64,000 nt of DNA from Candidatus Omnitrophota bacterium (GTDB taxonomy: Bacteria; Omnitrophota; Gorgyraeia; Gygaellales; Profunditerraquicolaceae): positions 76,772 through 140,771 of the forward strand of contig JAQUOD010000002.1 of NCBI GenBank assembly GCA_028717245.1. The letters run 5' to 3'. Below are positions 33,301 to 54,300 of this stretch, piece after piece (positions within the stretch are counted from its first letter, which is position 1; each line of letters starts with the position of its first letter). The notes below the pieces were generated by a model that saw only the letters and a list, made by a program, of their open reading frames with translations, had not been told where the DNA came from and searched no databases. The translations under genes were made by a program, and so were the position numbers.

Positions 33301-36300
33301 TCTGAAGATATTGCCGCTCTATGGGAGGCAGCCTCTAATGCTATTGCGTTGGATGAAGAGCCGCGACCGGCCTTAACCGAGTCCACAGGGCATAAATTCA
33401 GGGAGAGTTTTAGCACGGCCGAATGGGATAAGGCTCCCCCGCGCTGGTCAGGCCGGATAAACCAAATCTTGGAAAGTTACTATATGCAAAGAATATCTGA
33501 TTTTGGGCCATTGCCTCTCTCTGAAAGGTTGGCAATTAGAAATGAAAGGAGATTTTATGTCAGTAACCCATTTGGGCTTATAAACATATTAATTATTCCT
33601 TTAGCAATTATCTTTGATTTTATGCCTTTTGTTGGCCTATCGGCCCTTTTCTTAGTTACAGGTATTTTATTTAATCAAATCTTAACCTTCAACGGGCTTT
33701 TTAACACCTGTAGATCCACGGGATTTTCTAAAATAAGAGCTTTTTTTGGCGTAGCTTTTGGGTTGATGGCGGGATGGTTCATTTTTCAGTTGCCATTAAT
33801 AGGATGGCCGTTCTCTTTACTTACCTTTGGCGTAATAGGATTCTTCTTAGGGGGATGGCTTATCGGATTTTCTATATGGTTATCTCAAAGAATAAGGGAT
33901 ATCTTCCTTTTTGCCACTCGCTATGGGATTGAGGTTGTCTCCCAAGTTTTAAGTTATAAGGGTTCGGACTTCCAATTTATAACTTCTAAAGCAGCTAACT
34001 ATACTAACTATAGATTATGGGAAAAGGTCCAAACAGTGAAGCCTCTAACAACCTATTTAATCTGCTATGCCCTTGGTATCACCTTCACTCTATTAAACTT
34101 CCTTGCTTTGAGTTTAGGCATGGATTTAACCAATGTTTTAGCTTTGTTTATCTCCCTTGTTTTCACCACTTCTTTATTCGCCGGCGGGTTTTTAATGGAG
34201 AATAAACCGGGTAAGAGTGGGTGGAAGGACGGTTGGGGTTGGTTAGATGCCTTGGGGAAATACGTAGGAATAATTGTTGCTATAGGAATAATGATTGCAA
34301 GTTATTTCCTTAAAGAAGCGAAGATTATCCCCTCATTTTCAGTCTTTACGGGAACATTTTTCGTCTTTATAGGGACATTAGGCATAGTGGGCATCTTTAT
34401 TGCTTTAAGATGTTGCTTAGTCAATTTGGTGGAGTCCAAGCACATTCAAAACCACCGCACTTCCCAACGAATCCTCTGGAATATAGTAAATTATGCCTTG
34501 ATGACGTTTATATGCCTGATTTGGTTTATGGCTATTCCTACCCCGGATTACTTTACCCTGATTTTACCAAGCGGCTCTGTTTGGGAAGTTCCTTTTATAA
34601 CTGTAATCCAGTATATAGGAGGCGTTATCGGGGTCATCATTCTTTTAAAGATTGCAGAGTATATTGTTTCAAGGTGGGAATTTGCTCAAATTCAAAAAGA
34701 ATTAGCAGAAATAAAGAGAAATATGCCTCCTTCCTTGATGCCAGTAATTCAACCATTGCTTTGCCAAATAGATATTTTCCTTGATAAGAAAGGTTTTGGC
34801 GATGCCAGGAGGACAATGAATACGATATATGTTATCTTTGACTCTATGGTCGATGCGTTCGTCAGCTTAATTCCAGATAATCAGAAGAATTCGCCACGAA
34901 TTCTTGAATTACGCAATAAAGGGATAACAAGAAAGCAGGCTCATATCGTCAAAGGGTTTCATATTTATATATTGTCTAATGAATTGATACAAGGCGTACC
35001 TGAAAATGTACAAGGATTGGTTAAGAAAATTATTGCTGATTTGGGCACGGAAAGAGAAGACTTGAAGAATCTGTTGTTAGCTACTCAGGATGAAGCGCAG
35101 ATAATACAAAAGATTTCCCATATAGAATTACTTATTAATATATTGAACGCTGCTGTGGCAGTGCATAGGTTACTTTTTGGTTTGCCGTTTGAGGTAAATA
35201 ATCAAGCTAATACAGTCATTACAGACTTAAACACTGCGCTCGAAAGGTTAAAAACCGAAAGAGGCCCGGATAATACAAAAGCAATTATAAAACAAATAGA
35301 TTTTCTTAAAGAAATATTGGATGTTTTTGTCCAAACGCTAAAATTTGTTACCGGGCTTACAACTGGAACACGGGCTCAAGGAAACGACGTTATTCAGAAC
35401 CTAAGAGATCTACTTAGTCGCTTAAATACCGAACGTAATCCGGATAATATTAAAGCCATTAAGGGCCAAATAGAATTTCTCAAAGATATTCTGACTACCT
35501 TTGATAATGTAAATAAAGCTATAGCTGGCCTTTCTCCTGAAATACGAAAGGAGGCCGATAAATTCATTAATGAACAACTTATGCCTACCCTCAGCCAGCT
35601 CAATAGCGAAAGGAATTCAGACAGAGTCACAGCGATTAGGAAGATGATAACAGATGATTTACTTAAAACACTTTCTGATTACTTTGTCCAGGCTAATAAA
35701 CTAATAAATAGTCTTCCCGTAGAAACTAGAAACAACCTAGCGCGTGTTATCGAAGACCTTAATAATACGCTTAATCAATTAAACTTAGAGAGGAATTCAG
35801 ATCGAGTAAAAGCTATTAAACAACAAATAGTGTTGCTCATGGATATTTTAAATGCAGTTGTTAATACCCCAGAATTTCTCCAGAGAATTAGATTTGGATT
35901 CATATGTACTGTAGCGAGTCAAATTATCACTGAACTCGAGACCACATATAAGCAGTTGAATGCTGAAAGCGACCCGGATAAGATACCTAAAATATCAAGA
36001 CGGATTTATTTCCTTAGAAGCCTATTAGATACTATTCTCTCTGCCCGCGAATTCATTGCAGAGCTACCGGAAGGTGTAAGAAACCAAGGAACTGACGTCA
36101 TCAATGACCTTAACAGTCAGCTTAGCAGTTTAAATACCGAAAGGGACAAGGATAAGGTTAAAAATATTAAGAGCAATATAGATTTATTGAAAGACATTTT
36201 AAATACTTTTACTTCTACTCACCAGTTATTAGCTACGTTGCCAAGAAGCGTAAGGAGGCAGGCAACGCAAGTTATTGCTGACCTGAATACCCAGCTTGAC

Positions 36301-39300
36301 ACACTCAACACCCAGCGCAATAACCCCGAAGCCATTAACAAAGCCAAGACAGAAATTTCCCGGCTCAAAGACTTAGCCACCACCCTTAAAGAAGGCTTAA
36401 GCTTCATCTCAGCCTTACCTCCTGATGTCCAAACCAGAGGCACCGGCATCATCACTGACCTGAATATCCAGCTCAATACACTCAACACCAAGCGCAATAA
36501 CCCCGAAGCCATTAACAAAGCCAAGACAGAAATCTCCCGGCTCAAAGACTTACTCACTACTTTTAAAGAAGGCATTAGCTTCATCGCTGCCCTGCCTCCC
36601 GATGTCCGACAAACCAGAGGCGCCGGCATCATCACTGACCTGAATATTCAGCTCAACACACTCAACACCAAGCGCAATAACCCCGAAGCCATCAACATAG
36701 CCAGGGAAAAAATCTCCCGGTTAAAAAATTTACTTACTAACCTTAAAGAAGAACTTCGGTCAGGACAAAATGTAGATAAGGCAAAAGAATCTCCAAAGCC
36801 TGCTGCGGCCAAAGAAGGCGAAGCTACTGGTAAGCCTGCCGGAGCTGCAACATCTACTGCTACGGAAGGTGAGCCAGCTGGTACTGTGCCTGGTCAAGGA
36901 GCAGCTACCGGAGCAAATAATGCAGGGACAACCGGAACTACGCAAGGGCCAACAATTAATCAGCAGGCAGCTGCAGACCTTGAAGCCGAGTTATCTGAAA
37001 TCCTAAGGGATTCTTTGGCCGGAGCGCAGCCCCATGCGCCGCCAATTGTCAACATAAAGAAAGGTAATAAGCTGGAGATAATTTTGGGCACTCCTAAACT
37101 TACTAAGCAGCAACAGAAAGAGATAAGGCGTTTAATCATAGACAAGGTAATTCAGATTCAACTTCAGGATGAACAGGGCAGGTTTGTCTCTGTTGCGCCA
37201 GCAAATATTACCCTAAGGTTCGCCAGTATTCATTTCGAGTTTAAACTCAATAAACTTCCTCCTGCAACCTATCAGGCAGTAAAGCTAATATTCGAAGGCT
37301 ATGAATACGTTCACCGGTTCATTCCTCCTCTTTTCATTGGTAAAGCAACTAAAGAGCCCTCTCAACCAGTTGATTCAACCGGAAAATCTACTGAACAGCC
37401 AACAGATACCTCCGATAAGTCAAAGCCAGCGGAAATAAAACAACAAGCTCCATTTATAGCGGAGCTATTTAAGAATATTATCACAGTAGCTATTATATTT
37501 ATTACTTCGCCGCTCCTGTTTCTAGCCCTACTTTTTATAGCTTTAGTAAGCCTAGAGGCATTTAATACAGTTACCGATATAGTTATAGCGATTCCTTGGA
37601 ATATTTTTACAGCACTTGCTAACAAAACTAAACATACACCAAAGCCGCCAAAAGATCCCAGTGATTCCATTTCTTCCTTACAAGACAAACGCTCACCCGA
37701 AGATATCCAGAACTACAGGGCAAGAGTTGCCAAGGCTAGGAAAGAAGGCAGATTATTCAATATCACTCAGGATAATATCATCCAGCAGGCAGCGGATTTA
37801 TTAAGGGGTAAAGTCGTATTATTGCCGGGCGGCTTTGAGACATTGGATATCTCAGATGCCCTCAGCTCAAAACAAATCTTCTGGATTTCTGAGCCAGCGC
37901 GCGGCCCGCCTGATGCCTTTGCCGAAGGTAACGAAATTTATGTATTCTTACACGAAGGCCAATTAACAGCTATTGAGTTAGCTGGTGATTTGCTCCACGA
38001 AGCAGTTGAACTCCACCTTATAAAGAATGGCGTTGAGCCAAAACAAGCCTGCGAATTTGCTACTGAAATACACAAAAACTTTGCTGACCAAAACCAGAAA
38101 CCCCAAGCACCGAATTCAGGAAATAAAGAAAAATTTGATGGAGTGGATATTAGCATAAAGAAGATGCAGGAAGTAGTAAGGGGGGTATTTAGTAGTGGTT
38201 GGGAAATAGGAAGGATTATTGTCAGTGCCTTTATACCTGAGCAGGCAAAGGTTCTAGAAGAAAGTATTGGGCCTAAAGTATTCCCTCAAACCAAGGCAAA
38301 AGCACCTACTTTCATTAAAGGCAACCCTGATCCCGAAGGAGGCAGAGGTAATGGTATGGCTACCATTGCAGCCGGAAGAGCGGCATTCAAGGAGATGATA
38401 GAAGAGATTAAGTTAGCCAGAAGCAAATACAGCCTCTTAGAGCTTATTAGGCATGCTAGTGAGATTACGCATTCTGGCAGTACTATAAATGAAGCCATAG
38501 TAGGTTCCTCTATGGTATTACACAGTGGTGGCGAGGCCAAAAGGAACCACGCCCACGGCCCAGCTGGTGGCGGCAAGATTAACGCCGTATTACCCGGTGG
38601 AAGGTTATATGAGATGTTGAGCGTAATTATGGTTAACTTGGCAGGGATGGCAGGAGATTATCCTTTGTTTGGTAATATCTTTGGTGATGCGCTCATTTGT
38701 TTTGATCCCGACAACATAGGCGGGATGGTAAGAGAAGCGCTCGAGAGAGGTGACTCAGTGTTGCTATTAAGGAAGATATCATATCTTGAAGCTCCCAAAT
38801 ACGGCGTGGCAGTATTAGACAATGAAGGCAGGATAGTGAAGTTTGTGGAGAAGCCAGGTGACCACTTTAAGTTTTCAGGGGCAGACTTAGAGAAACCTGA
38901 GAATCGGAAGAAGTTGCTTGATTATCTTAAGGAGATAGGAGTGCTTATGCGTGGCACCGAGGATAGCAAAGAGCCTTTGGTATTGATGAACCCTGCCTTT
39001 ATGTTGAATGGCCTATACGACATCTTGGCAATGCTTTATCTGGCAGGTTTAATTAATAAAGAAGGCAACCTTGAGATAGATCAGAATGGAAAGATTAACT
39101 TGCAGGCCGATAGTGTGTTAGAAAGAGCCTGCGTCTATAAGATTCCCATTGATACCTATGGTGACTTGATTCCTGCCAAGACTGCGGGCAGGGGGGAATA
39201 TATTGCTGCACGCATAGGTGGTACGGTCAGAAGAATTGCTGATAAAGGTGTAGCAAAAGAAGAGGCAAAGCAGAAAGCGGAGCAATTTTGGTCAGATATA

Positions 39301-42300
39301 CACGCTGCTATGAATGGCGAGGTATTTGCTGAGAAGTTTAGCAGAGGCAGGTTAGTGGGTATTCCCATAGACAGCTACTGGGGCGATACCGGTGCTAAAG
39401 ACACCGAGTTAAATATGCTCTTAGGCGAAGGCAATGAGGGAAACTTGGTAGCGAAAGCCAATGAATTTCCTAGCCGCAGAGACGCCCAGGTGGCGGGTCA
39501 CTTAGGCGAAGGAGGCAGGGTTTATGAATCAGAGGTTTATGCTCAGGGTCAGCAAGAAAGCTTTAAGCTACCTGAACAGGCAGTTGTCTGTGATGCCTAT
39601 TTGGGTGAGGATGTAAGACTCTATATGCAAAACAGGTCAATGATAATAAATGTGGGTGCCAAGAGCGGTATTATCTCAGTCTTTGGTAATTGGAGATTTT
39701 ACTATGACTGGACAAAATTTGATCCTGTTGGAGTAGTGGAATACAATGAAGATAATCCGAACCAAGATGCATGGGCAAGTGAAAGTTTAAGTTTATTTAT
39801 GGTAAGAGCATATGAGCATTATAAGGAAAAAGAACAAATTAATGTGGGTCTGGCTAAATTCTTGGAATTAATATTTGGCAAGGATTTATTACAACCTGAC
39901 AAAGCCAGAATCTATCCTAATCCCGAAAAGATGGAGAAGACTCAGTACGATGAGATTATAGAATGGTTACGTCGTCACGAAATCTCCCCTCCGCCTGAGG
40001 CGTGGTTAAAGGCGCTTGGTTCAGACAAACTGGTTACTCAGGATAAAACAAGAGAAGAAGAACGCATTAATTTAGGTAAAGAAGAATTGGTAGACTGGAT
40101 AGCAGCTGTAGCAAAGACTAATAACTTTGGCCTCGGTAAGATATGGGACATAAATACCTACACTGCTAAGCTATATCCCGAGGTGCCTAGGGGTGAGGTG
40201 GGTAGAGAAGACACAAAGGATAACAGGATAAACTGGCAGGAATTCGATGCCACAATGAGGTGGCTACAGACTCAAATAGAAGAACCTCCTGTGGCTTGGC
40301 TAAGATTATTATTAAACAACAAGCTTCACTCTATGGGAGAAAATTCAGCTCAGGCAGACCAGGAAGCAGTGTTTGAACACCTAATTGGTGGCGGAAAAAA
40401 GAGCGGAAACAATCAGCCGCAAGCCACCGGACCTACCCTGCCTATCGAAGATGCCAAACAAAAAATTGAACAGAAAAATCAAGGTCCCGCCTCCAGCTCT
40501 TCCTTACAGGGTAAGCACTCTTCCCAAGACATCCAGGACTACAGGGCGAGAGTTACTAAGGCCAAATCTGAAGGTAGATTATTCAACATCACTCAGGATA
40601 ACATCGCCCAACAGGCAGCGGATTTATTAAGGGGTAAAGTTGTATTATTGCCGGGCGGCTTAAGGACGCTGGATATCTTAGACGTCCTCGCCGCAAAGCA
40701 AATCTTCTGGATTTCTGAACCGCAGCGCGGCCCGCCTGATGGCTTTGCCGAAGGCAATGAAATTTATCTCTTTCTACATCAGGACGATTTAGCCGCATTA
40801 GAGTTAGCCGCATGTTTACTCCACGAAGTAATTGAGTTGCACCTTATTAAGAATGGCATTGAGCCAAAACAGGCCTGCGCATTTGCTGCTCAAATATGCG
40901 AGAAATTTATAGAAGATGTCCGCAACGCGCGAGGCTCTATAAAATTGCAACCCACTGCCTCCAGCTCCCGCAGAGGCCGCCTCTCCCACGATGACCATTT
41001 AAGGGTTAATGCCGAGATAGAAGTAGCTCAGATGGAATTCCGCGGTTGCCTGCTCTCCGGGACAATTGATGGTTGGCAGATGCCCTTCTGTCAGCAAGAC
41101 CCACAGCTCTACTATACTGCCAGAGAACTCACCCAAGGCTTAGTGGCTAAATTGCCCCAGGTCTTAGGGCAGATAGACATTTACGAAATCCTCAAAGCAG
41201 CTAACGTAATCCTGGTTGTTAACCGTAACCGCTCACCCGGAGATATTGACGATCACATTGGCGAAAAGCGTAACTCTATCTATATTCTTGTTCATTCGGA
41301 AGAAGAATTCCTGAACCTCGCCGCACCGGAATTAGCCGCCATTCTTGCCCACGGGGCAATAGAGCTCGCCACCAAAGAACACGCCTTGAAGAAGGGCATT
41401 GCCTGGGATGATATAGCAGATGAGGCCCATCTAGAGGCGCAAGCCTTCGAAGAAAGCAACCGCGAAATCCTCTCCCATAGATACAACCGCATGTTGATGA
41501 AAATCGATATGCAGGCCGCCTTCAAAGAGGGCTGGCGTATAAAGCGCATCTTCCAGACCGCCTTTAATAAAATCCAGGCTGCTATGTATGCCTCTCAAAT
41601 TAATCCTGAAGATTATCCCAGAGACACTAAAGTTATCCCTGTGGCAGACCCAGAAACTTACAGGAGGGGAGCCAGGGTGCGCGGTAATGGCATTGCTAAT
41701 TTAGGTATCATCAGGGCCTTAGCAGAAGAATTAATTAAAGAGCTAAACTTAGCTCCCGGCACATATAATTTGATAGATTTATTGGGTAACAGCCTAACCG
41801 TCGGTTTACACGGCGGTGGGCAATCCTCTCGTAATCCCAAATATACCCAGATCGGCAAGTTCAATGGTTATCTGCCTATAAAGAGTTTGAATAAAAACCT
41901 CCCCGCCACATTGCAAGAAGAACTCTTGGTTCCCGCTGCAGTATTAAGCCAGATTTATCCTGAGAATATGCCGGCCTACATCAATACTTATGGCGATGCC
42001 CTGATTACCTTTAATCCCGGTATGGTTAAGCAAATTATTAGTTCTAGTCCTGAGATGGTCAACGGGATGATGGTCTTTGTAAGAAAAGTTCCCGCTAGAG
42101 AGTCGCCTTGCTGGGGAACAGCTAGCGTAGCGTCTAATCTACGCATAGTGCAATTCATAGAAAAACCTTTGGGAGATACAGGGGAGGTAGTCAACGGCAT
42201 TATCAGAGTAAATAAAGAAAAGTTTGTCATAGACGAAGATTTAGATAAAGCCAAAGATATTTTAAGAAATAAATATAAGGTATTGGTTGACGACGAATAC

Positions 42301-45300
42301 ATCCTCATGAATACTGCCTTTGCTGTCTTGGGGCCGCTAGCCTTAGTGCGCTGGGCGATCTTAGCCGGCATTGATGTAGACATAGATGGCAAATTTACCG
42401 TTATCGAACAAGGCAAAGTCCCCTATAACAAAAATAGTTTCTATGATAAAGCCCTAACTTATGGCGCAAATGTGGACACCTTCGGTGACCTGGTGCCTCC
42501 TATGAGCGAGAACGTAAACATACTTGAGTTTATCTTTAGAGGCAACGTAAAGCAGATAGAAGATGCCAAGAAGAAATTCAATGCCTCAAGCCTCTCCATA
42601 TTAGAAGATATCCAAACCAGGCTACATGGCCTGCGCGAAGGCTTCAATGGAAAGACAATCTCCTTGAATGAGTTAGGCCAGGAACTTGAAAAGTTAGCTA
42701 AATCCCTGGAAAAGAGATTTACAGAGGCACAGGAGGTAAACGATATTCAGGCGTTAGATACCTGTTTATCTAATGTAACCCAGATTTTAATGCGCCAGAT
42801 ATTGGCTGAAGTCTTACGCCATCCGGGCGCAGGCTCTAATCTTTGGGCAATTCCCATAGAAGGCGACTGGCTGGATACAGGTAGGACCATAGAAGAATCT
42901 CAGATTATCTTAGGCCAGGGCCAGGCGAATAAGGAGTTAGGTTTAATCTTTGGTTTTGAGCAATCGATTGCGTCTAAGTCTAACGTTACAAGCCATAGCT
43001 ACGCCAGTATCATTGAAGCCGGCCCCGATTCACACATTGCTCCGGACTCCATACAGATTGCCTCATACCTTAACGGAAGAATTCAATTAGACAGCGAATC
43101 TCAGGCCCACATGGTAAATTGGAGAGGAGACTTGCATCTTTATCCGCAGGTAGTAATGTCTGAGGCGCCCATATTACATAAAGATAAAGGTGAAGATAGA
43201 AGTAAAGATAAAAGCTGGATAGTGCATTTACTCTGGAGCCTGCAGGATGGAGAAACTAACAAAATCACTACCCATATGAACCGCTCCTTAGAAGAGTGGC
43301 TTAGCGCCTTGGGTATTGATATGAATAAGATTTGGGCCCCTGGCGCAGCACATATGTTAACCACTGCCAGAATTTTCCCGGGCCTTAGCCAGCAGGTCTT
43401 GGAACAAGGAAAGCCAATTGACAACCTTGATAGAGAACTCTATGAGTCCATGTATGAAATCTGGGGTTTCTTACAAGGCCATACTTCTCCTGCACCTGAA
43501 GCCTGGAAGAAAGCCTTAGAACAAGAGCGCCTATTCTCTATGACTGATGTCTATAACGAACCCGCTACTGAACTATTGCAGCAGAGGAGACAGAAGTTAA
43601 TAGAGGAATTAAAACAAAAAATTGACCAAGAAAATTCAGGCATCGCCTCCAGCTCAAGCCAGATACCCTTAGGCTGGCTCTATGATGCAATAGAGGATGA
43701 ATACTACAACCCCGCCAATCCCACTATCCGAGGCAAAATAGTAAATGGCGAATTTGGAGTATATGGGGGAGGCCTGCCTTCACAGGATTGGCTGCATATC
43801 CGCCAGAACGCCAAAGAAGGATTTAAGCTTCCTACCAGCGTATATCTGTCAATATATGACCAAGAGCAGAAGAACGCTTTTAAAGAATACTTTAAGGTCT
43901 ATAACTGGCCTAACAATACAATATTCGATGAAGGTACCATTGTCATTGATGAAAAGGTGCCGGCTGAGGTAAAGCAAAGACTGCCAAAAATAGTAGTAAA
44001 AGGTAATGGCTTAGGCATCTTAAGCGTGATCAGGGCAGATATCAATAGATTGGCAAAAGAATGGAATCTTGCGGATGGAGATTACTCATTAGAAACTCTC
44101 CTTAGGCAACATAAGCCGCACAGCGTGGTAGTAACCGCAGGCGGTCAGGCCCAGCGTAATCCTAAATACACCCAGATAGGAAAGATTTTAGCCACCTTGC
44201 CTATTGAAAGTAAATCTAAGGGTCAGCCTTCCTATATTTTGGAGTCGCTCTTAGATATCTCTATCAACATCGAGCACAACTACCAGGACAGCTTTATGTT
44301 TGCCGTAATCTACGGCGATTCCCTGATCACCTTTAACCCTGAGCAGATGCAGGAATACTTCGCCCAGCATTCAGCGGTAAAAGAAGGCCTCTCCTGCCTA
44401 TTCTTGAAGATGGGCTATAAAGAATGTGAAAGATACGGCTTCGGAAAATTAGCAGAAGGCAGTCTAAAAGTAGAGGTATTCATAGAAAAATATGACGACT
44501 TCCAGAAAAGATACAGCCTGCAAAAAGCCAGTACCCCCGATGAGATGAAAGAGCAGCTTAAAGGAAAGGGAGCTTTGGTGGATGGCGAATGCATCTTAAT
44601 GAATCCTGCCTTCTCTGTCATAGGAATCAAGGCCTTCTTAGGTTATACGCAGCTGGCAGGGATTGTTGATCAGCAGGGGACGATGACGATTGAATCAGGT
44701 GAAGTGAAATACACAACGGATAATTATTTAGATAAAGTATTAAACGGAAGGGAAGGTGAAAGTGTAGACATAGATAATTTTGGCAAGATTGTCCCCAGCT
44801 TTGCTACCCAAACCCAGGACACCCCTATTACCAGAATACTTAAAGACTGCCAGGGCCTGCTTTACGCTGTCCCTGTGGAAGGGGTATGGTTCGATACAGG
44901 AGGGATAAAACAGGAGCGGGATATCTCCTTGCAGGATGCTGCCTATAGCGAAATCATCAGCACTTATGGATTAAGGCCTTCAATTAACAGCGCATTAACC
45001 GTTGCTGGACAAAGAATATCCAAGGATTATAGCTACAATTGCCGCATTGAAGCCGAAAGAGGAAACATCCATCCTAAGAGCCTGCAGATTAACAGCGTAG
45101 TAAGGGCTTCTGAGATTATCTTAGAAGAAGACTCACAGCTTTATAACGTGCTCTTAGAGAATATACCAAGCTTAAGATTATATAAAGATTACATCTTCAT
45201 TGAGGCAGCAGCAAAGATAAATGACCGGGATTTTATCGTGCCGATTGTCTGGAACCAAGCCACTGATGACGTCAAGAAAGATTCCTTTGCCGGAAAGAAG

Positions 45301-48300
45301 CTCCAAGAGTGGGCGCAAGATTATGGTATGCGCATTCAAAATCAAGGCAGCCTCTTTACCGCAAGGCTCTTCCCTGGGATTAGCCCCATGCTTTTAGAAG
45401 AAGGGAGAGCCACTGATGACTTAGATAGAGAACTGCTTAATGACTTACCGCAAATCTTAGAATTCTTACAGCAGAAGATTAAGTCACCGCCAGAATCCTA
45501 TAAACGGGCACTCGCAGAAAGAAGAGTTGCTTCATTCGAAGACACCTACAAGAATCCAGCTTCTAAAATCTTTGTAGAAAGAAGAAAGAAGATCCGGCAA
45601 GCAACCCAGATACCTTTAGGCTGGGTTTATGACAAAGTAAGAGATGACTACTACAACCCCGCTAACCCCAGCATCAGAGGCAAGATAGTAAATGGCGAAT
45701 TTGGGGTATATGGGGGCGGTCTGCCTGCTAAGGAAGTTGTCTTTACCGATGGGAATAAGATTAACTGGCAGGCTCCGGTTATTATTGCTCACGGAATGAA
45801 AAACATAGAACAAGCAAAAGAGGCCATGGCTCAAGGCGCAAAGATACTTGAAATAGATACACAGCTTACCAAGGATGGCAGACTTGTTGCTTGGTGGGGC
45901 AAAGTAAATACCAAAGATGGAGAAAGGTTTGTATATGAGCTAACAAAAGAAGAGATTGACGGTATCTTGGGCATAAAAACACTCGATGTGGAAGAATTAT
46001 TTAAGCTGGTCAGCGGTAAAGGGGTTGGTTTATTATTAGATACGAAAGACTGGGCAAGGGATATACCGGGTTATACCGATACTTTTATAAATAAACTTGC
46101 AGAGATTATTACGGCTTACCATATGGAGGGCTACATCTTTAGTTCGTCTTTCGGAGATTACCCCACCCTATTAAAGAAAATTGTGCCTAAGGTTCTTGCG
46201 GGGATAGGCATCCATAATTCTGAGAAAACAGTTAAGGTATTAGATAGATATATTAAAAATGCTAAATTATCGGGCTGTTCTGTAGTGGGGGCATATGGTA
46301 AAGAATTAACTGATGAGTTGATTGATAAAATACATAATGAAGGGTTATTAGTTGTTACGGGCTGGGCCGATTTAGATGGAAAGTTAATTTCTAAGGTTGA
46401 TTTAATCTGGGCAGATGATTATAGAGGAGCAGCGCGGGCCATCGGATCCGGCAGGATCAATAATGCCCTTGAACTGCAAAACATACCTTTGGAATTGGAG
46501 GCGCTTCTCACTAACCTAAAAGACTTAGGCGCATTTTTGGATAATGCAGGCGCAAGGCTGCAAATTGCAGGTTATTCTATTGACCCTCAAATACCCATCT
46601 GTATCGAAACCTTCTCTTTAGTTATTTTAGGTTATCTTGCAGGCCAGCTCTTTAGAGCAAGGCAAGATTCTGATACTATTGCTTACCTATATATGCTCTC
46701 TTATTTGAGAAGCCTCCCTATTGAAAAACGCCGCCCAGTAGTTGAGGAGCTAGGCGCATTAGGAAACAAGCTCTTTAGAGAGGTCAACTTAGACTTGGAT
46801 GAAGTAATTATAAATAACCCCAGTTTGAAAGATTTAGTCCTTCTAAGGGATAGAGTAGTCAGCCGCACCAGGGCATTACGTATTGCTGTGGAGACCGCAG
46901 GCCTTAATATGGAGGACTTAGAATTAATAACCGGGCATACAGATTTACTCAAGGTGGCCTTAGGCTTACGCCCGGCAGCCCGAATAGAAAATAACTACAC
47001 TCGAGAAGAATTAGAGCGCCTCAAAACATTACTTAATGTCTTTGACCATATTGAAGGCGCAGCCATAAATATCATTAGCTTAGTTGATGGTAGTCTCTAT
47101 GCTTATGATGAATATCAAACTAAGCTAACAGCTTTCAATTTAGATAATCACAAAAAGTCCGCGCTCTCTTTGACCAACGAAGGAGTAGAGCATTTAATCC
47201 GTCTGCATATGGCCAAGGCGCGTGGCGAATTCTACGCTTTAGCCGCGCAGGCATCTGCCATAGACGAAGCTCTTATTAATTTCTTAATCAGCAATATCGC
47301 TTTACCTCTATTGACTATGCATCAGTTCGATAAATTAACCCGTTGGGATATGGAGAAACGTATCTGGCGCTCTGCCGGTTTAGGCAGCCGTTTCTATGAG
47401 CTGGAGCGGCCTAATGTGGATGTCGTAGCTATGGCTACCATAGACAGACCAACAGCTGCCGTAAATCAGATTGAGACAGAACTGGAGAACTGGAGAATAT
47501 TTAATCGCCGCCCAGTATTTATATTAATTGATGACTCAGGCGTAACCCGTCCCGGGAGACCCGCCTCACCTAACTACAACCTGGATACCAACCGTAAGAA
47601 CATTACCTGCTTGCATGATACCTACGGCGATAGCTTTGTGCATTTAACCTACGAAAACAGGGATAGCGACCAGCAAGCTTGGGCATTGGGCACTTTAGAA
47701 CACCTTGAAGCAAAACTTAAAGCAGAAACCCTGGAGCCCGTCTTTATGGCTATCTTAACAGACAATAAACTTTTGGACCAGAACGGCTCAATTAATAGGG
47801 AGGCATTTATTAAGTACATATTCGGTAACATTTTTAAGAACATCTCAGGCGTGCGCAATTACACTTTTTTAAAAGCTTTAGGTTACCGCGTAATGAGTGA
47901 GGATGATGATGCGCCATCCGAAACCTATGTAGTGCTGCCTGAAGAATTAGAAAGTATCAGAGAAAAGAGAGAGGTTTTACGGGAAGCCGCCATGAACAAA
48001 CTCTTTACTGAGGCATCCGCTATCTTTGCCCAGCCGGTTACTAAAGAAAAAGAGCTATATGCGCTCTGGGCAAAAGAGGCCGACCAGGTAAAACTGGCTA
48101 AACTTGAAGCGTTAGAGAATGCTTACTTTGGTTACAGTGAAGACGGATCAAGCGGGATTATTCCTCAGGCTATGGAGCAGGTGCGTAGATATTCCAGCCA
48201 CTATATGGACCCGCGTTACAGGCGTACACATCAGCGCTATGAGGGGTTAAACCGTCCCAAAGCAGGTTATGATAAAGAAGGCCACATACTTTATAAAGAT

Positions 48301-51300
48301 ATGCCGGAATACTTAGTAGCCATTGATGATTTCTACTACAGGTACAGGCCAGGCCGCATAGAAAAGACGGATGGTAAATCCATGGTCTATCCGGTAAATA
48401 TTATCGGCAGCACAAGAGACTTAGGTAAGAAAGTCAAGGATACCAATTTAAGTGTTTTCTCCAATAGTTTACGCGGCACAGTAGCTATACCCGCAGACTT
48501 ACAGACCGTTATGTCAAGTCAGGATAAGATAATTGAATATATTGCATATCCATTTATCAATGACCATGATACATCAGGTATGGCTCAATTTATCCAATAT
48601 CTCTTAAGCGATACTAAATTCTGGTATGATTTACAGCATACCCACCAGTCAGCTTTAGTGGTTAATTCTATCAGAGGCTATGCTGCCTCAACCTATGTCA
48701 TCTTCAACCGCTCTGTCTTCCAAAACTTTATACCGGGAGTATCTATCGGAAGAGAGCTACGCTTGGAAGAGCCTCCGTATATGCTCTGGGTTAAGTCGCC
48801 TATATTTAACGGTGCACTTATTGTTTCTTTAGGCAAAGTAGCCGGCGCTCAACAGCGCCAGGTAAATGAGCGCAACTACTGTATCAGCCAGCAGGATTAT
48901 ACTGAAATCCTCGGTACTTCAGCAAGGCGTATCTATGAAAAAGCGGTGGAGAATTTCTATAGTTATATGGCGAAGCTACCAGCCAATCATGTGCTTAATA
49001 AAGAAGATAACCATTATGGCCGTTCGCTACTCTTGGGCCAGATGTATATAGAGGAAGCTAAGGCCTTTAAACTTACTCGTCAGGAAACAGAGCAGTTGAA
49101 GGCTGAACGTAACTTCCGCGCTCAGATGGCCACTACATTAGGTATTCAGATAGCGCAGATGCAGAATAGGCTATTGGAAATCCAAAAAGAAGCATTAACT
49201 GAACAAGAAAAAGCCTTGCGCGCCCAGTTCCAGGATATGGTTGCAATTTTGGCGCAGATGGCTGACTATTTTGACTTATGCGAAGTCTCAGACCGCAAGA
49301 AATGGTTACCTAAAGACACTCAGGTTGATTATTTCTATCGCTTGAAGATAGAAGGGAATAAGCTCTTCTTTAAGAAAACCATAGCGCAGCTTATGGTAGA
49401 GAACATTAAAGGCATTGATATTGCTACTGAAGCCAACTGGCTTGATGACAAGGATTGGCAGGAGAGGGACTTTAATCAAATCTCTACCCAAATAAAAGAT
49501 GAACTCTGTGATGCTATCCGGTTTGAAGTTGAACCCGGTCGCTACGTCTTTATAGAGAAGGCACGTTTACCTCAAGATAAAGAAGAATTTATTGCTGTAG
49601 CCGCTCCCAAGGGCTACGAAGATAATTTCATCGAGACCATTGAAAAGAATATTAAAGAATACGTCCAGAAGGACGGCGAGGCTATCGCCCTCTGGGCAAT
49701 ATTGGCTAATGCCGCCCAGAAAAACAAATCTTCCCGCGAGATAGATGATTTACTGGGTAGCAACGCTAACCGTGCTCCGCAGGATATTTATAGAGAGATA
49801 GAAGATACTTCTGTCAAAGCCAGTTTGTGTAAAGAAGAAGCTTCATTGCCCGGGCTGAATTTTGGATTCCATGGATTTGAGATCTCTGAGTCACAAGTTG
49901 GAGGCATTGCTGATGTTTTAGAAGCCTTGCCTGTTGCTGTGTTAAGAGCATATACAACTAACGGAAAGGGCCACGCTGTATATCGAGTAACTCCATATTA
50001 TCGGAATATGAAGACGATGACAGATGCAATTCACTTGAAAGACCTCGAGAAACGAGTTGAAATATTGATTCCTTATCAGGGTAAATCAATAAAAGTTATA
50101 GCCTACAAAAGAATGCTTCCTTCTGGTATTGTAGATTATCTTTTGGTTAGCGATGTGTTTACTGCTCCTTATGAAAAATCAGATGTAACTAAGCCGGAAG
50201 AGGCGCTAAAGGAAGTAGTTGTATTTAATGCTGCCGCTGCGATGTTGATTGTGCTAGGTGAAACTAAACCGGATGTTTTATTTTTGGCAGATTGGCAGAC
50301 ATGCTTATTATTCTCATATTTGTTGGAAAGCATTTCAGAGCCAAGAGCGCTATTGAGGAGGATGGTTGTTCAGGCGCAAGGCAGCCTATTATCAGGAGAA
50401 GAATTGGTGGATAAATTTATCAATTCGGGTAGAGCAGCGCGTATCACGCCGATCCTTTGGATTAATAACGCAGTGTACCTGGGGCAGTTTAAAATATCCG
50501 GTAAAGAAGATTTTGAATTTAAGACAGGGTTAGTTTCCCAGCAGGCTTTTGAGCACGCACGATGGATTACGCCCAAGAGGCCGCAAGACGTATGGGCGGT
50601 TTTGTTAAAACTGGGAGCAGAGACTGTTAATTTTTGTGGCGGACGGCCAATCGCGGTAAGCCAGGACTACGCCAATGATATTATGGGTAAAAACTTGCAA
50701 CAAGGCGGCTGGCCGGGAATATTAAACGTTATTTTTGACAGGATTGGCGTACCAGGTGTTATGAACGGCGCTTCTCCCGGATGGCGTTATATTTGCGATA
50801 TAAAAGAAAAACAACCGGCAAAGCTGCTTCTTCAGGAGCGTTTAGGATTGGAAAAAGGGATTGGCAAGAAGATTGTATTTATGTTAGGCAGGTTAGCTAC
50901 TCAGAAGGGGGTCTCTTTGTTCATCGACGGGAGAGAGCAGATTAAAGAACTACTTAGGGCATATCCTGATATGGAGTTGTTTATCGGTGGCAAACCAGAG
51001 ACAGAATGGGTCCAACCCTTAAGCCGGATAAAAGAAGAGTTAGAAAATGAATTCCCAACCAGGGTGCGCATTATGCCGGGCTTTATTCCGGAAGATTTAA
51101 CGCAGCTTGTTTACAAGGCGGGGGATATGAATTTGTATCCGTCCTTATTTGAGCCGGCAGGTTCATTGTATAAGAATGCTTTAAATATGATAATTACGAT
51201 AGTAAGATTAACAGGAGGCCTTATTGAAAGCGCAGTGCCTATAGAAAACGATAAAGGTAATGCCGTTGTCTTTAAAGATTATACACCTGAAGCTTTTATC

Positions 51301-54300
51301 GGAGCATGGAAGCAGGCATTAGAATTAAGCCAAGATAAGGAACGTTGGCAAAGAATACAGGCCAGCGCCCCGGCAACAGTCAAAACTTGGGATACCCAGT
51401 TTATCAAATACGCCAAAATTATGAAGGAGGCAAGGGCCAGGCAACATGCTACCAGGGTAGTAAAGGATATTTTAGGTTATATCAAGAGCAATATCGAAAC
51501 TTCAGGCCCGCAGGTGGCAGTTAAGCCAGAGTCATTTCTCTATCGCCTTTACCATAGCTTAAATAGGACAATTAATGGGATTATGAAAGAGATTGAGGAA
51601 AGAAAAATTAATCCTTTTGTTAAACTAAACCTGATGAAATTCTCAGAGGAGCCCAAGGACGACCGGCTTTTAGAAGTTGACCGCGAGATGCGTGTAGGGT
51701 TCTTCCCTATAGCAGGAAATCCTCTAACTTGGGCTCATATTTTAACTTCATTAATGGCATTAGAGCTTTTGGGGCTTGATACTGTAGTCTATCGGGTACA
51801 AGGTGAAATACGCTATAAAGAATTACCGGAATCAGACCGCGTTCCGGTAAAGGAGCGTCATGAAATGGCGCAGAGAGTAGTAAATAAATTTTATCCTTTA
51901 CTAAGATACACTGATTTAGGCAGTGAACCAAATAATGAAGAAGAGGGTTTTGAAGAGATGTATAGATTCCTCAAGATGAATTCTAACCACAGGATACACC
52001 TTTATTATTTGCTGGGAGTAGAAAACAAAGAACGGGTTTTAAGATATGCTAAACAACAGTATGGCTTACAATCCCGGCATAAAATTGATTCTAACCACGC
52101 TGTAACCGTAGCGTGGATACAGCGGGGAGAATATGGAACCAACATCACTTTAGAAGAATTAAAGGAGACTTACCGGAAAGTGAAGGAGGAAATTGGAGCG
52201 CAGCAGGATATAGATTTAGCGCTCGTTCAACATCCTGAAGTAGATATCAAAGTGAATTCCGGTGATTATCGCAAAAGCCATGATTCTACTATGGTTCCTT
52301 GCGAGATTGATAAAGACGCAAAAGCACATGGTTATTACGGGTATCCCGCGGTTGATTCCGGGAGGACCGGCTCAATTGTTTCTGACCCCGCCCGCTCAAA
52401 GCCAGATAAACCCAATACCTATGATTTGGATGTTCCAGATGATACATTGAGATTTATTGAAGTAAAGACAGAACCGTCTCCGATAAGCCCTAACATTAAC
52501 TTACCTGCCTATCAAATCCAGAGAGCAATCAGAGATAGAGCAGGTAGAGATATCCCCCTTGAACTCATAAGAGAAGCCCTAAGAAAAATACAACTACATT
52601 GGATGGGCATGCCAGTTAAAAATGACAAGATTCATATTTTTTTACCAAAGACTAAATTAGATACGGATGGGATGAGCTCAAGAGATAAATTAGGGATATA
52701 TATTGATGTAGAGCAACGTGCAATCATGGTAAGCAAATACGGAGATAAATTGTTGCAGCTTGGATTAGCAAATTCCTTTAACGTAGAACAAACAAAGATA
52801 AAAGATATTGAAGTAACGACACCAAAAGGAGATATGAAATGGATAGATTTTATACATCAGCAAGGTTTAATCGATAATAAATTGAAAGAGAGATTATGCG
52901 CTCATAGTTTTTCGTTAGAATTCGACCTCTTTATAGTCGAAACATCTGCAGGTAATACCGTAGAATGTAATTATGTCATTAAAGATCAGAGCATCATTTT
53001 CTACTATAAAGGTAATAACATATACTCACAAGTAAAAGGTGGCGTGCCTTTAGATGAACTTGAGCGCATAAGAGGCGTTATAGCCCATATCCATTCACAT
53101 CCAGGAAAGAAAGTTTGGACGAGCATAGGAGATGCTGAGATGTTCAGGAGCCTTGATGAATATAACAAATCTCCTATATTGCATCTGATAATAGGTTTTG
53201 GTTCCAAAAAGGAAGATTATGTTGTGAAGAGTTATAGAATAAAACCGGATTCTATTTTGTTAACTATAAGACCCTCAGATATTGGTTATTATTTTTATCA
53301 AGAATTTTTTGGTCAGCGAAAAACTACAACAGATATAGAGAGAATTCTCTCTGAAGAATTCAACGAAAGAGAGGAAAGCGGGGGGAGTAGTTCTAAGGAC
53401 AACAGAGATGGTTCTATTTCTGGCACTGATCCCGCCTCCTCCAAGTCCGGTAAAGAGATGACTGATGAAGAAGTGGATGCGGAAATTGCCCAGGCCGGGC
53501 CTAAGGTTAGGGAATTTGCTTTGGCCGATAAAGACAACTTTAGGATTCAAGGTGAGGACTTAAGGCCATTCATCAGCCAGTGCCATCCGGAATTCATACC
53601 TCTCTTAAATGAGCAACTCGCAGATTTAGGCCACCTAAGGGCAGGGCCATTTAGTGACTTAGCCGGCGCTATCCGCAACAAACTCTTCTACATTGATGAA
53701 CAAATCCTCATCCAACCTTTAAAACTGCGGCTTGTTATTCTGCATGAATTAGGTAAATTATCCGGAAGGACCCACCAGCAGAACCTGGAGTTAGAAGCAG
53801 AGTATTTAGTAGCTTGCGTTCAAGAGCAAATCAACTCCCAGAAGAACGCTCCTTCTCAAGTTCCCGCTCTCTTTAAGATTACCCTAGAGAATCCTCTTAT
53901 CATCCAAGACGGTGAGGAAACCATCAAGATAACCTATGATGAATTACAGAACTTAAAGAAAAACCTCCCCAAGGTCCTTGCAGAATATGACGTGCGCGGT
54001 AAGGATGAGTATTTTAGCCGTGAGCTCTTAGTCCTCTTAGGTTTAGCATTAGGCACTGCTACCTTTAACTCCCACCACGGGAAAGAGTCTTTGAAGCCAG
54101 GAGATGTTTATTTAGTGGCAGGAGACAATGGCCCCACAACCCCCAAGATGCGTAAATACCTCTCTATGGGTTTAAGGGCAGCAGGCGTAAATGTGGTAGA
54201 TTTAGGCATCATTGTCAGCGGCCAGCTCTATAGCTCTATCTTTAGATTAGGCGCCCAGGGCGGCCTTTACATTACCCGTTCCCATGTTGAAGTAGGCATA

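Follow-up and report, generated by a model that had tools for sequence, protein, structure and literature searches.

Between nt 37.6 and 45.8 kb, the 64-kb stretch of DNA analyzed here (nt 1-64000, hereafter the window) holds a series of repeated modules, and the question is whether these arose by recent duplication of whole blocks, as the initial annotation proposed, or through an older history in which the parts have different ages. The entire window, read on the + strand, is a fragment of one giant ORF, a setting that had been overlooked: frame 1 contains 0 stop codons, whereas the other five have 1115-1972 apiece, and thus encodes at least 21,333 aa without interruption, above 10,000 aa and open at both ends, with Pfam domains found along the full 64 kb by profile search. 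Upstream of the repeats, a SecA-like region (nt 17701-21000) matches PF21090 at 21.9 bits (cut-off 27) and PF01043 at 20.9 bits (cut-off 23.5), both below cut-off. A Kyte-Doolittle hydropathy scan, used without a topology predictor, found about 40 hydrophobic 19-mers between aa 458 and 12531, the last forming a transmembrane-like hairpin at nt 37447-37593 (aa 12483-12531), and no hydrophobic segment in the remainder of the window. The protein downstream of aa 12531 thus appears to be soluble, and the soluble part that starts with the region at nt 37.6-45.8 kb is probably cytoplasmic.

Within this region the parts follow one another in the order A1, B1, linker, A2, A3, B2, linker, T1, B3, T2 and GDPD. 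Module A1 (nt 37666-38082, aa 12556-12694, bearing LLHEAVELH at nt 37990-38016) and module A2 (nt 40492-40908, aa 13498-13636) match each other in a self blastn at an offset of 2826 nt (E 7e-104), and motif T1 (nt 43654-43788, aa 14552-14596; QIPLGW...GVYGGGLP) matches T2 (nt 45601-45735, aa 15201-15245) at an offset of 1947 nt (E 4e-31), so that the off-diagonal matches predicted from the initial annotation are indeed present. Their identity is lower than had been claimed: instead of 93%, A1 and A2 share 80.5% of their DNA over 405 nt in the best local alignment, 77.9% over the boundaries originally drawn, and 75% of their protein sequence, while the T copies (45 aa, 135 nt) are 81-82% identical in DNA (82% over 133 nt) and 76% in protein. 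T had been described as a tail of B; two copies lie where expected, but they are better seen as a junction motif placed ahead of the next module, B3 in the case of T1 and the GDPD domain in the case of T2. This last domain, resembling a glycerophosphodiester phosphodiesterase, starts with VIIAHGMKN... at nt 45778-45960 (PF03009, 25.3 bits against a cut-off of 23.6).

Three further elements had escaped notice. A 15-residue linker, L (KQKI.Q.N.G.ASSS), is shared directly ahead of A2 (nt 40456-40499) and directly ahead of T1 (nt 43612-43655), at an offset of 3156 nt and with about 80% DNA identity (82% over 44 ungapped nt by the repeat finder, 80% over a 45-nt codon alignment). Between A2 and B2 there is also a third A module, A3 (nt 40957-41421, aa 13653-13807), which is degenerate; it carries LAHGAIELA and is recognized by the family HMM with an i-E-value of 4e-40. 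Finally, the C-terminal ~75 aa of B1 are followed by a small tandem duplicate (nt 40048-40335), whose local alignment score of 67 was reached by 0 of 500 shuffles (26 +/- 5) and which contains a fourth, 11-residue copy of the B C-terminal motif at nt 40279-40311.

The three B modules, B1 (nt 38164-40035, aa 12722-13345), B2 (nt 41497-43536, aa 13833-14512) and B3 (nt 43918-45555, aa ~14640-15185), were correctly recognized at the outset, both in number and as NTP-transferase-like domains. They recover one another in blastp with E values of 1e-20 to 1e-51 at 27-37% protein identity, and self-BLAST detected no DNA similarity among them. The motif of the form SPP(P)E(A/S)(W/Y)...AL is also present after each, spanning 12 residues after B1 (nt 39982-40017) and B2 (nt 43483-43518) and 11 after B3 (nt 45481-45513). 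Against a gathering cut-off of 34, PF07959 matches B2 at 47.4 bits and B3 at 41.8 bits, and the homologs P0008 and P0026 at 64-102 bits; B1 passes the PF00483 cut-off of 21.2 marginally, at 21.4 bits. B1 contains GGEAKRN (nt 38521-38547), B2 GGQSSRN (nt 41809-41835) and B3 GGQAQRN (nt 44134-44160), and the positions GG..R, GK, LP, GD, EKP, LMN.AF and W.DTG are invariant in 11 of 11 aligned modules (B1-B3 plus 8 homologous ones). Among these, we take GG..R, GK, GD, EKP and W.D.G to be the NTP/sugar-phosphate-binding and catalytic motifs of the family.

To place these copies in time we compared synonymous divergence. For A1/A2, dS is 0.64 and dN 0.15, and codon identity at identical residues is 72%, compared with 38-43% expected; for T1/T2, dS is 0.63. 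Among the B paralogs the corresponding value is 39-43%, where chance alone would give 36-37%, which means that their synonymous sites are saturated. The relatives of the ORF are themselves giant ORFs, the closest loci (63-66% aa identity) and P0002 coming from MAGs labelled Candidatus Omnitrophota and a more distant one (L005) carrying the label Planctomycetia, and they provide a yardstick: the A3-B2 orthologs in L002 and L003 keep 64-67% protein identity but have a dS of at least 2, and codon identity at identical residues in cross-species orthologs is 47-49%. Since dS is 0.64 for A1/A2, at least 2 for these orthologs and saturated for B, the A1/A2 event is younger than the split from L002/L003, and the B paralogs arose no later than that split. 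It also follows from the first and last of these values that the A and B parts of one presumed unit differ in age, in disagreement with the view that A-B units were duplicated as blocks.

Phylogeny and synteny point the same way. B2 is 64-67% identical to its orthologs in Omnitrophota MAGs, and 48-67% over its orthologs in other Omnitrophota, vs 27-37% to B1 or B3; in a neighbor-joining tree without support values it groups with P0008_B and L001_Bb, B1 and B3 branching outside, suggesting that the triplication predates those lineage splits. No ortholog of B1 or B3 was found in the few relatives available, so that part of their depth in the tree could come from rapid change once they had been duplicated. 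Saturation at synonymous sites speaks against B being young, and is of no help in ordering very old events. The A3-B2 pairing is kept in L002, L003, L001 and L004, where A3 is the cap ahead of the B2 orthologs, and A1-B1 compares with A3-B2 at 33% aa identity for the cap (A1/A3) and 30% for the enzyme (B1/B2). These comparisons indicate that A3 is the old partner of B2, that A3-B2 is the old counterpart of A1-B1, and that A2 would derive from later copying of module A by itself. A1/A2 and T1/T2 accordingly appear to be younger, separate small copy events, outside any duplication of an A-B block.

The repeats are real, and we consider it likely that they represent old, diverged modules of sugar-activating enzymes, together with small junction domains, assembled in one Omnitrophota-type gene through a two-layer history. 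An ancient tandem duplication of a cap-plus-enzyme cassette would have given rise to A1-B1, A3-B2 and B3 before this lineage parted from the closest Omnitrophota relatives sampled. Later, lineage-specific copying of the small modules alone, either by duplication or by non-allelic gene conversion, would have produced the 417-nt A pair (A1/A2), the 135-nt T pair (T1/T2) and the 44-nt linker, now ~80% identical with a dS of ~0.6.

The duplication model of the initial annotation, in which A-B and B-plus-tail units were recently copied as blocks in a gene that is expanding now and whose assembly is at risk, does account for the tandem arrangement of the modules in the order described, and in relatives this cassette does occur as nearly identical tandem copies. 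We nevertheless regard it as very unlikely here: DNA identity is 80% rather than 93% and, instead of reaching ~90% or more across a whole unit, is confined to the 417-nt and 135-nt modules, B retains no DNA similarity and is saturated at synonymous sites, and cap and enzyme of one unit are of unequal age. Nor is synonymous divergence low in any of the pairs. Exact repeats reach at most 29 nt in nt 37001-46000 (43 nt in the whole window), so that the anticipated assembly collapse is no concern. An outright assembly or chimera artefact is extremely improbable; nothing was found in its favor other than that the sequence is presumably metagenomic, a setting in which repeats are a known problem, while every copy is diverged, in frame and stop-free across 64 kb, each keeps the conserved residues of its family, and the A3-B2 arrangement recurs in independent assemblies from other samples.

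If instead all copies dated from one ancient block duplication, A1/A2 and T1/T2 would seem younger merely through stronger purifying selection, which would fit the low dN relative to dS of A1/A2 (0.15/0.64) and the conserved motifs of the A family. Purifying selection at the protein level does not preserve synonymous sites, however, and the codon identity of 72% for A1/A2 stands well apart from the ~40% of the B paralogs and the 47-49% of cross-species orthologs; moreover, the cap kept ahead of the B2 orthologs is A3, not A2. A single ancient event is therefore quite unlikely. A sub-variant of the two-layer history, which we hold to be possible but tentative, attributes the likeness of A1/A2, T1/T2 and the linker copies to intragenic gene conversion between pre-existing junction paralogs. 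Three short tracts show near-equal divergence (80-82% DNA identity, dS 0.63-0.64) despite offsets of 2826, 1947 and 3156 nt, they have sharp edges that fall at the ends of modules, and L001 displays the same mosaic, with Bc'/Bc at 99.7% beside Ba/Bb at 44%. On the other hand, A2 adjoins A3, giving two successive caps that look like an added copy, and in L002, L001 and L004 the orthologous cassette has A3 only.

Coming back to the two-layer history, the notion that the gene grows by internal duplication holds insofar as this stretch is built from intragenic module copies and relatives have re-duplicated the cassette; it is recency that fails here. L003 contains a 2613-nt head-to-tail cassette copy at 99.9% identity, L001 a 1752-nt copy at 99.7%, and L006 copies at 85.6-89.6%. 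Since the first two are truly recent, internal duplication appears to be ongoing in the gene family.

Module A, ~135 aa long, was found in 28 representative proteins among 1.84 billion and has no match in Pfam or NCBIfam and no sequence match in the PDB; it seems to constitute a rare, undescribed domain family at junctions between enzyme modules, and both A and T are putative junction modules. The family consensus is L.HE.IE: in a 17-sequence core alignment the second E is invariant, H is nearly so, and the E after H varies, A3 reading HGAIE at this position. An AF2 model of A2 (pLDDT 94.5) gave Foldseek matches in the PDB at E values of at least 0.38 (SPRTN, TM 0.34). In BFVD, the best match (E 0.033, probability 0.92) is named "Transcriptional regulator of DNA damage repair" and is, in our reading, IrrE-like; Lethal factor and SprT-like proteins come next. 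The weak fold matches (SPRTN, M32, IrrE-like, Lethal factor, SprT-like) are thus all of the zincin type, weakly suggesting that module A is zincin-like. The family has HExxE in place of the zincin HExxH, with only H...E well conserved, and it yields no significant sequence or fold match to known zincins, so that any homology and peptidase activity are putative. Phage and plasmid polyvalent proteins are known to contain interspersed zincin-like metallopeptidase domains (Iyer et al. 2017, PMC5512222). Like these, module A is small and of alpha/beta architecture, a sheet preceding two long helices of which the first bears the H-E motif, and it turns up repeatedly among unrelated enzyme domains in very large proteins.

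The domains and closest relatives of the ORF suggest an Omnitrophota-type giant gene that combines multiple enzymes. As in the giants described by West-Roberts et al. 2023 (doi 10.1101/2023.11.21.568195) and in a 2026 preprint (doi 10.64898/2026.06.07.730766), a single ORF tens of thousands of residues long, here a fragment only, combines many hydrophobic segments with a weak, putative SecA-like region and with GGDEF, methyltransferase, peptidase, GT5/GT1 and PGM/PMM domains, and its nearest relatives are Omnitrophota MAGs. The sugar-metabolism module that the preprint reports (PF08323, PF00534, PF02878-80) has its counterpart in the PF08323, PF00534 and PF02878/9 domains of this ORF. According to the two sources, repeated Pfams are the rule within long Omnitrophota proteins and are ascribed to ancient duplication and divergence, and here too Pfam domains are repeated in one polypeptide in which DNA similarity has dissolved. 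A term search of both found no passage on tandem PF07959 modules or on A, T and L junction elements, and the words "nucleotidyl" and "polyprotein" are absent from doi 10.1101/2023.11.21.568195 and doi 10.64898/2026.06.07.730766. Large modular genes, such as those with PKS/NRPS modules or repeat adhesins, are likewise mosaics of ages in which some segments are homogenized or recopied beside anciently diverged ones, but the modules here are unrelated metabolic enzymes and small caps that form neither an assembly line nor an adhesin repeat.

As for what the B modules may do, their matches above the gathering cut-off and their GG..R, GK, EKP and W.DTG motifs place them with PF07959, the N-terminal domain of L-fucokinase/GDP-fucose pyrophosphorylase (FKP, PDB 5yys), and with PF00483, the sugar-1-phosphate nucleotidyltransferases that include GlgC. 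Unlike known enzymes of these families, they are very divergent (14-18 bits against PDB sequences), carry a long helical insert plus, at the C-terminus, a conserved extension whose last residues read ...PP.AW.KAL, and are triplicated and fused within a giant protein; unlike FKP, they have no kinase half. The best PDB matches in both sequence and fold are sugar-1-phosphate nucleotidyltransferases, mostly ADP-glucose pyrophosphorylases: for a poor model of B2 (pLDDT 59.5), the top 19 and nearly all of the 50 Foldseek matches listed belong to the latter, with probabilities of 0.8-1.0, E values of at least 7e-4 and low TM-scores. B1-B3 thus appear to be paralogous sugar-1-phosphate nucleotidyltransferase domains of the fucose-pyrophosphorylase (PF07959) type, and their enzymatic activity and substrates are predicted from this kinship. 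Downstream lie GDPD, GT5/GT1, PGM/PMM (phosphoglucomutase), GH77 (amylomaltase, E 7e-115) and a second GT5, and these adjoining glycogen-pathway domains fit a role resembling that of the ADP-glucose pyrophosphorylase GlgC. The three modules would most likely make NDP-sugars for the glycogen and glycan enzymes that follow them in the same polypeptide, namely the two GT5 glycogen synthases, PGM/PMM and GH77.

DNA self-comparison of the entire window gave 12 off-diagonal matches, and those touching nt 37680-45726 are the pairs A1/A2 and T1/T2. The two copies of the junction or "cap" module A (A1, 37666-38070; A2, 40492-40896) share 80.5% DNA identity over 405 nt (E 7e-104), and the two copies of the "tail" motif T (T1, 43655-43787; T2, 45602-45734) share 82% over 133 nt (E 4e-31); the corresponding protein values are 75% identity with 83% positives and 76% identity with 96% positives. 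A 44-nt linker is also repeated (40456-40499 and 43612-43655), at 82% ungapped identity by the repeat finder and 80% over a 45-nt codon-aligned stretch. Protein self-comparison in 400-aa chunks recovered three nucleotidyltransferase-like modules, B1, B2 and B3, at 24-37% identity (E 1e-20 to 1e-51), and picked up a third, weaker A module; an HMM of the A family found exactly three modules on the 21,333 aa, A1, A2 and A3 (aa 13653-13807). A ...SPP.E.W..AL motif follows each B module, and a tandem duplication of the C-terminal ~75 aa of B1 accounts for a fourth copy 100 aa beyond the first. The repeat architecture is thus real and far beyond chance, and it is more complex than two A-B units plus three B units. 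The initial annotation was right about the tandem architecture, the three B modules, the two tail copies and the recurrent SPP(P)E motif, but not about its two-plus-three-unit picture or the identity of about 93% that it quoted for the A copies, which falls to 77.9% when the boundaries it had drawn are compared at the correct offset (2826 nt).

Divergence between copies was measured as dS and dN (Nei-Gojobori) and as codon identity, counted where both copies have identical residues. A1 and A2 show 72% codon identity versus 38-43% by chance (dS 0.64, dN 0.15), and T1 and T2 show 73% versus 39% (dS 0.63, dN 0.14). For the B modules, codon identity is 39% for B1/B2 (36-37% by chance, dN 0.86), 40% for B1/B3 (36%, dN 0.90) and 43% for B2/B3 (36%, dN 0.70), with dS saturated in every pair. 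The third A module gives 43% versus 35% against A1 (dS saturated, dN 0.78) and 48% versus 35% against A2 (dS 2.19, dN 0.70). For calibration, A3-B2 and its orthologs in two related loci (L002 and L003) have 64-67% protein identity, 47-49% codon identity and a dS of at least 2. In a neighbor-joining tree of nine B-type modules, B2 groups with the modules P0008_B and L001_Bb from two related sequences, with L001_Ba and P0026_Bn as the sister group; B3, then B1, branch outside both. From synonymous divergence, ortholog calibration and the B tree, the B paralogy is no younger than the split of these Omnitrophota lineages. The A1/A2 and T1/T2 events clearly postdate that split but are by no means recent, contrary to the recent origin first proposed for all these copies. 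No orthologs of B1 or B3 were found in the six recovered loci, and faster evolution could therefore overstate their depth in the tree; the result from synonymous sites is independent of that depth.

The initial annotation had also treated A and B as duplicated together in blocks. A and B within one such unit differ in age, which contradicts the block model. The two old cassettes are A1-B1 and A3-B2 (33% protein identity for A and 30% for B), and the A3-B2 arrangement is kept in four of the related loci (L001 to L004, the last corresponding to P0008). A2 is an additional A module that was either inserted before A3 or arose there by conversion. Further repeats occur elsewhere in the window. Two FN3-like segments (11965-12152 and 13285-13472; 85% DNA identity, dS 0.30) flank a GH2-like TIM-barrel domain, in the same cap-enzyme-cap geometry as A1-B1-A2. 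Tandem 177-nt (59-aa) units lie just upstream of A1 at 34876-36822 (core 36278-36751), an array of 2.7 copies by TRF with 87% matches and a dS of ~0.33, which is ~650 aa long at the protein level. The GH2-like cassette is itself present in three diverged copies (12334-13197, 20566-21420 and 27154-28188; 35-42% aa identity), another ancient internal triplication in the gene. The window gives a dated, layered series, with saturated B paralogs, caps and motifs at a dS of ~0.6, and other repeats at ~0.3.

The stretch had moreover been suspected of being prone to assembly collapse or expansion. Its longest exact repeat (nt 37001-46000) is 29 nt, within A1/A2, and over the whole window the maximum is 43 nt, within the 177-nt tandem array at 36.3 kb. 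Because exact runs are this short and identity is only 80%, the copies would collapse neither in short-read k-mer graphs nor with long reads. Near-identical repeats do occur in relatives, and some of them could be assembly artefacts in those MAGs. In L003 (Omnitrophota MAG Yes70-23, 6956-12169), the A3-B2 ortholog is repeated head-to-tail over 2613 nt at 99.9%, which points to very recent copying or to an artefact. A metagenome contig, L001, carries a canonical PF07959 module of 1752 nt twice (7751-9502 and 12092-13843) at 99.7%, adjoining the B-type modules Ba and Bb, which are only 44% identical, a mosaic suggestive of gene conversion; one ORF of this contig also encodes glucan-synthase-like, deaminase, GDPD, methyltransferase and HTH_8 domains. 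In another Omnitrophota MAG, L006, tandem copies are 85.6% (2756 nt, dS 0.42) and 89.6% (3911 nt) identical. Given these duplications and the window repeats at a dS of ~0.3, internal duplication and conversion is a fair description of how the gene family grows, duplication having been suggested for this gene by the initial annotation, with the copies at nt 37.6-45.8 kb being old to middle-aged. A 2026 preprint reports that 65% of long Omnitrophota proteins contain repeated Pfams and attributes these to ancient duplication with later divergence (doi 10.64898/2026.06.07.730766), an account with which the ages found here agree. Duplication itself is ordinary here, one more case of the published rule of anciently duplicated domains in giant Omnitrophota proteins; together, the window and its relatives, with identities up to 99.9%, present cassette duplication or conversion as a continuing mode of gene growth.

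All of these modules lie in one reading frame. Frame 1 of the + strand contains no stop codon over 64,000 nt, while each of the other five frames contains 1115-1972, and the window is an internal fragment of a single gene with a minimum of 21,333 codons, which continues past both ends of the window. The longest ORF listed under the bacterial code has 208 aa because the listing leaves out ORFs open at both ends; an alternative genetic code or non-coding DNA is ruled out as the cause by the stop-free frame. Pfam domains are spread along the whole of frame 1 (window scan), with TPR, GGDEF, SAM methyltransferase and peptidase M28 in the upstream part, followed by FN3 with the GH2-like TIM barrel, subtilase S8 with WD40, and a weak SecA-like region. 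Downstream of the repeats (45778-64000) are GDPD, a GT5/GT1 glycogen synthase, PGM/PMM, a GH77 4-alpha-glucanotransferase (E 7e-115) and a second GT5. Hydrophobic 19-mers occur often as far as aa 12531 but nowhere beyond it in the window, leaving a stretch of 8,800 aa or more that is free of hydrophobic segments and carries the set from GDPD to the second GT5. It also includes an unannotated module of ~1000 aa (46606-49695) without a Pfam match, which has 60% identity to a copy in L005, a MAG labelled Planctomycetia, and is present twice in L006. The nearest sequences elsewhere are likewise unbroken giant ORFs, in MAGs labelled Candidatus Omnitrophota. In Pfam content, hydrophobic segments and closest relatives, the ORF agrees with the giant, multi-enzyme, membrane-anchored Omnitrophota proteins described in two reports (doi 10.1101/2023.11.21.568195; doi 10.64898/2026.06.07.730766). 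A first scan of a genome collection with exact peptides of the window gave no match, and a word-indexed search with a 1103-aa protein query returned two matches only and missed the related protein P0008, so that its negatives are weak.

The assignment of the B modules as NTP_transferase-like held up in whole-module scans: B2 (47.4 bits) and B3 (41.8 bits) exceed the gathering cut-off of 34 for PF07959 (Fucose_pyrophosphorylase), and B1 lies just above that of PF00483 (NTP_transferase; 21.4 bits, cut-off 21.2). The homologs P0008 and P0026 reach 64 and 102 bits for PF07959. Invariant in an eleven-module alignment are GG..R, GK, LP, GD, F.P, EK, LMN.AF and W.DTG, which we take to be the motifs by which this superfamily binds nucleotides and sugar phosphates; since these are kept, all three copies look intact. 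A B1-B3 profile gave weak matches to PDB sequences, all of them sugar-1-phosphate nucleotidyltransferases (GDP-mannose, ADP-glucose and UDP-glucose pyrophosphorylases, plus FKP), and NCBIfam matches were to the same families, far under cut-offs. With a poor AF2 model of B2 (five-sequence alignment, pLDDT 59.5), Foldseek returned ADP-glucose pyrophosphorylases as the top 19 and nearly all of the 50 matches listed (best E 7e-4). The same soluble stretch continues downstream with PGM/PMM, two GT5 glycogen synthases and GH77; on the simplest interpretation, the B modules would supply NDP-sugars to a fused glycogen/glycan pathway. Within a single soluble region of 8,800 aa or more, three predicted nucleotidyltransferase modules are joined to what looks like a complete set of glycogen enzymes.

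In the B-module alignment, T1 lies directly before the N-terminal helix of B3, and T2 directly before the GDPD domain; T thus takes the junction position held by A elsewhere. Pairwise comparison hinted that T might be a truncated A module (z ~5 for T1), but the A-family HMM gave it no score. No homologs sharing three 5-residue words with T were found among 5.8 billion proteins, and the motif is absent from L001 to L006. The junction KQKI(E/D)Q.N.G.ASSSS (40456-40503 and 43612-43659) precedes A2 and T1 and could be a flexible or recognised linker; in the related protein P0001 a similar linker, IEELKKQIKGKQNVSSLRGKH, precedes the A module. Another cap, "X" (...YxLIATNDN....LIHENNG..H...), also with an H-E helix, stands on both sides of a B module in L005 (9543-9964 and 11997-12418; 422 nt, 100% identity) and occurs in four copies in L006 (aa 2379-2492, 3194-3293, 4015-4128 and 6000-6116; 80-86% identity). 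Homology between A and X found no support, as hhalign aligned only 20 columns (probability ~1%).

Module A is a ~135-aa domain (37666-38082, A1; 40492-40908, A2; 40957-41421, A3) of a family found in the related proteins P0001-P0029. Its profile has 28 matches among 1.84 billion representative proteins, mostly fragments of very long proteins, in which A stands just after membrane segments or between unrelated enzymes, surrounded by GT5, GFO/IDH/MocA oxidoreductase, response regulator, NTP-transferase, CofD-like and M28-like domains. In P0002, an A module precedes the orthologous GT5, whereas none was found before the GT5 of the window; the gain and loss of A modules is therefore not tied to the enzymes that follow them. 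P0004 has two A modules (aa 2114-2251 and 2455-2584) identical over ~120 residues, each after a membrane-rich region, another recent cap copy. The family conserves a start motif, S-[FLY]-x-G-[KR]-h-[ST]-x-x-[DE], an R.PP loop, an N.IY.F strand, an L.HE.IE helix and, in the next helix, H residues that are replaced by C in A1 and A2. An AF2 model from a 34-sequence alignment is a confident alpha/beta fold (pLDDT 94.5, pTM 0.88). No match to module A was found in Pfam, NCBIfam or PDB sequences, nor any significant one by Foldseek. The weak PDB fold matches (SPRTN, M32 carboxypeptidase, TTHA0227) are concordant with those in BFVD, of which the best is a phage "Transcriptional regulator of DNA damage repair" (E 0.033, probability 0.92), presumably IrrE-like, and others are Lethal factor, SprT-like and polyvalent-protein domains. 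Selecase (MJ1213) was discarded as a sequence relative, with E 0.16 for the full profile and no match with the core profile. The predicted order of secondary structure, a sheet followed by a pair of long helices with H-E on the first, agrees with the zincin core as described (PMC5512222), but module A carries HExxE where zincins have HExxH; for this reason "zincin-like junction domain" is a lead and not a classification.

The A family, rare and unannotated but with a confidently predicted fold, marks the boundaries between enzymes and is a possible new element. The 2023 giant-gene paper asked whether and where giant proteins are cleaved (doi 10.1101/2023.11.21.568195). One speculative and rather unlikely reading is that A is a new, degenerate zincin-like family on the N-terminal sides of enzyme cassettes, acting as cis-acting processing sites that release enzymes from a polyprotein. 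Cutting near the start motif would then free single enzymes, and further small caps with an "HE-helix", for example the ...LIHENNG..H... module of L005 and L006, might perhaps belong to the same family of processing domains. If true, processing by A would answer the cleavage question. The A junctions give experimenters defined sites for testing the processing of giant proteins.
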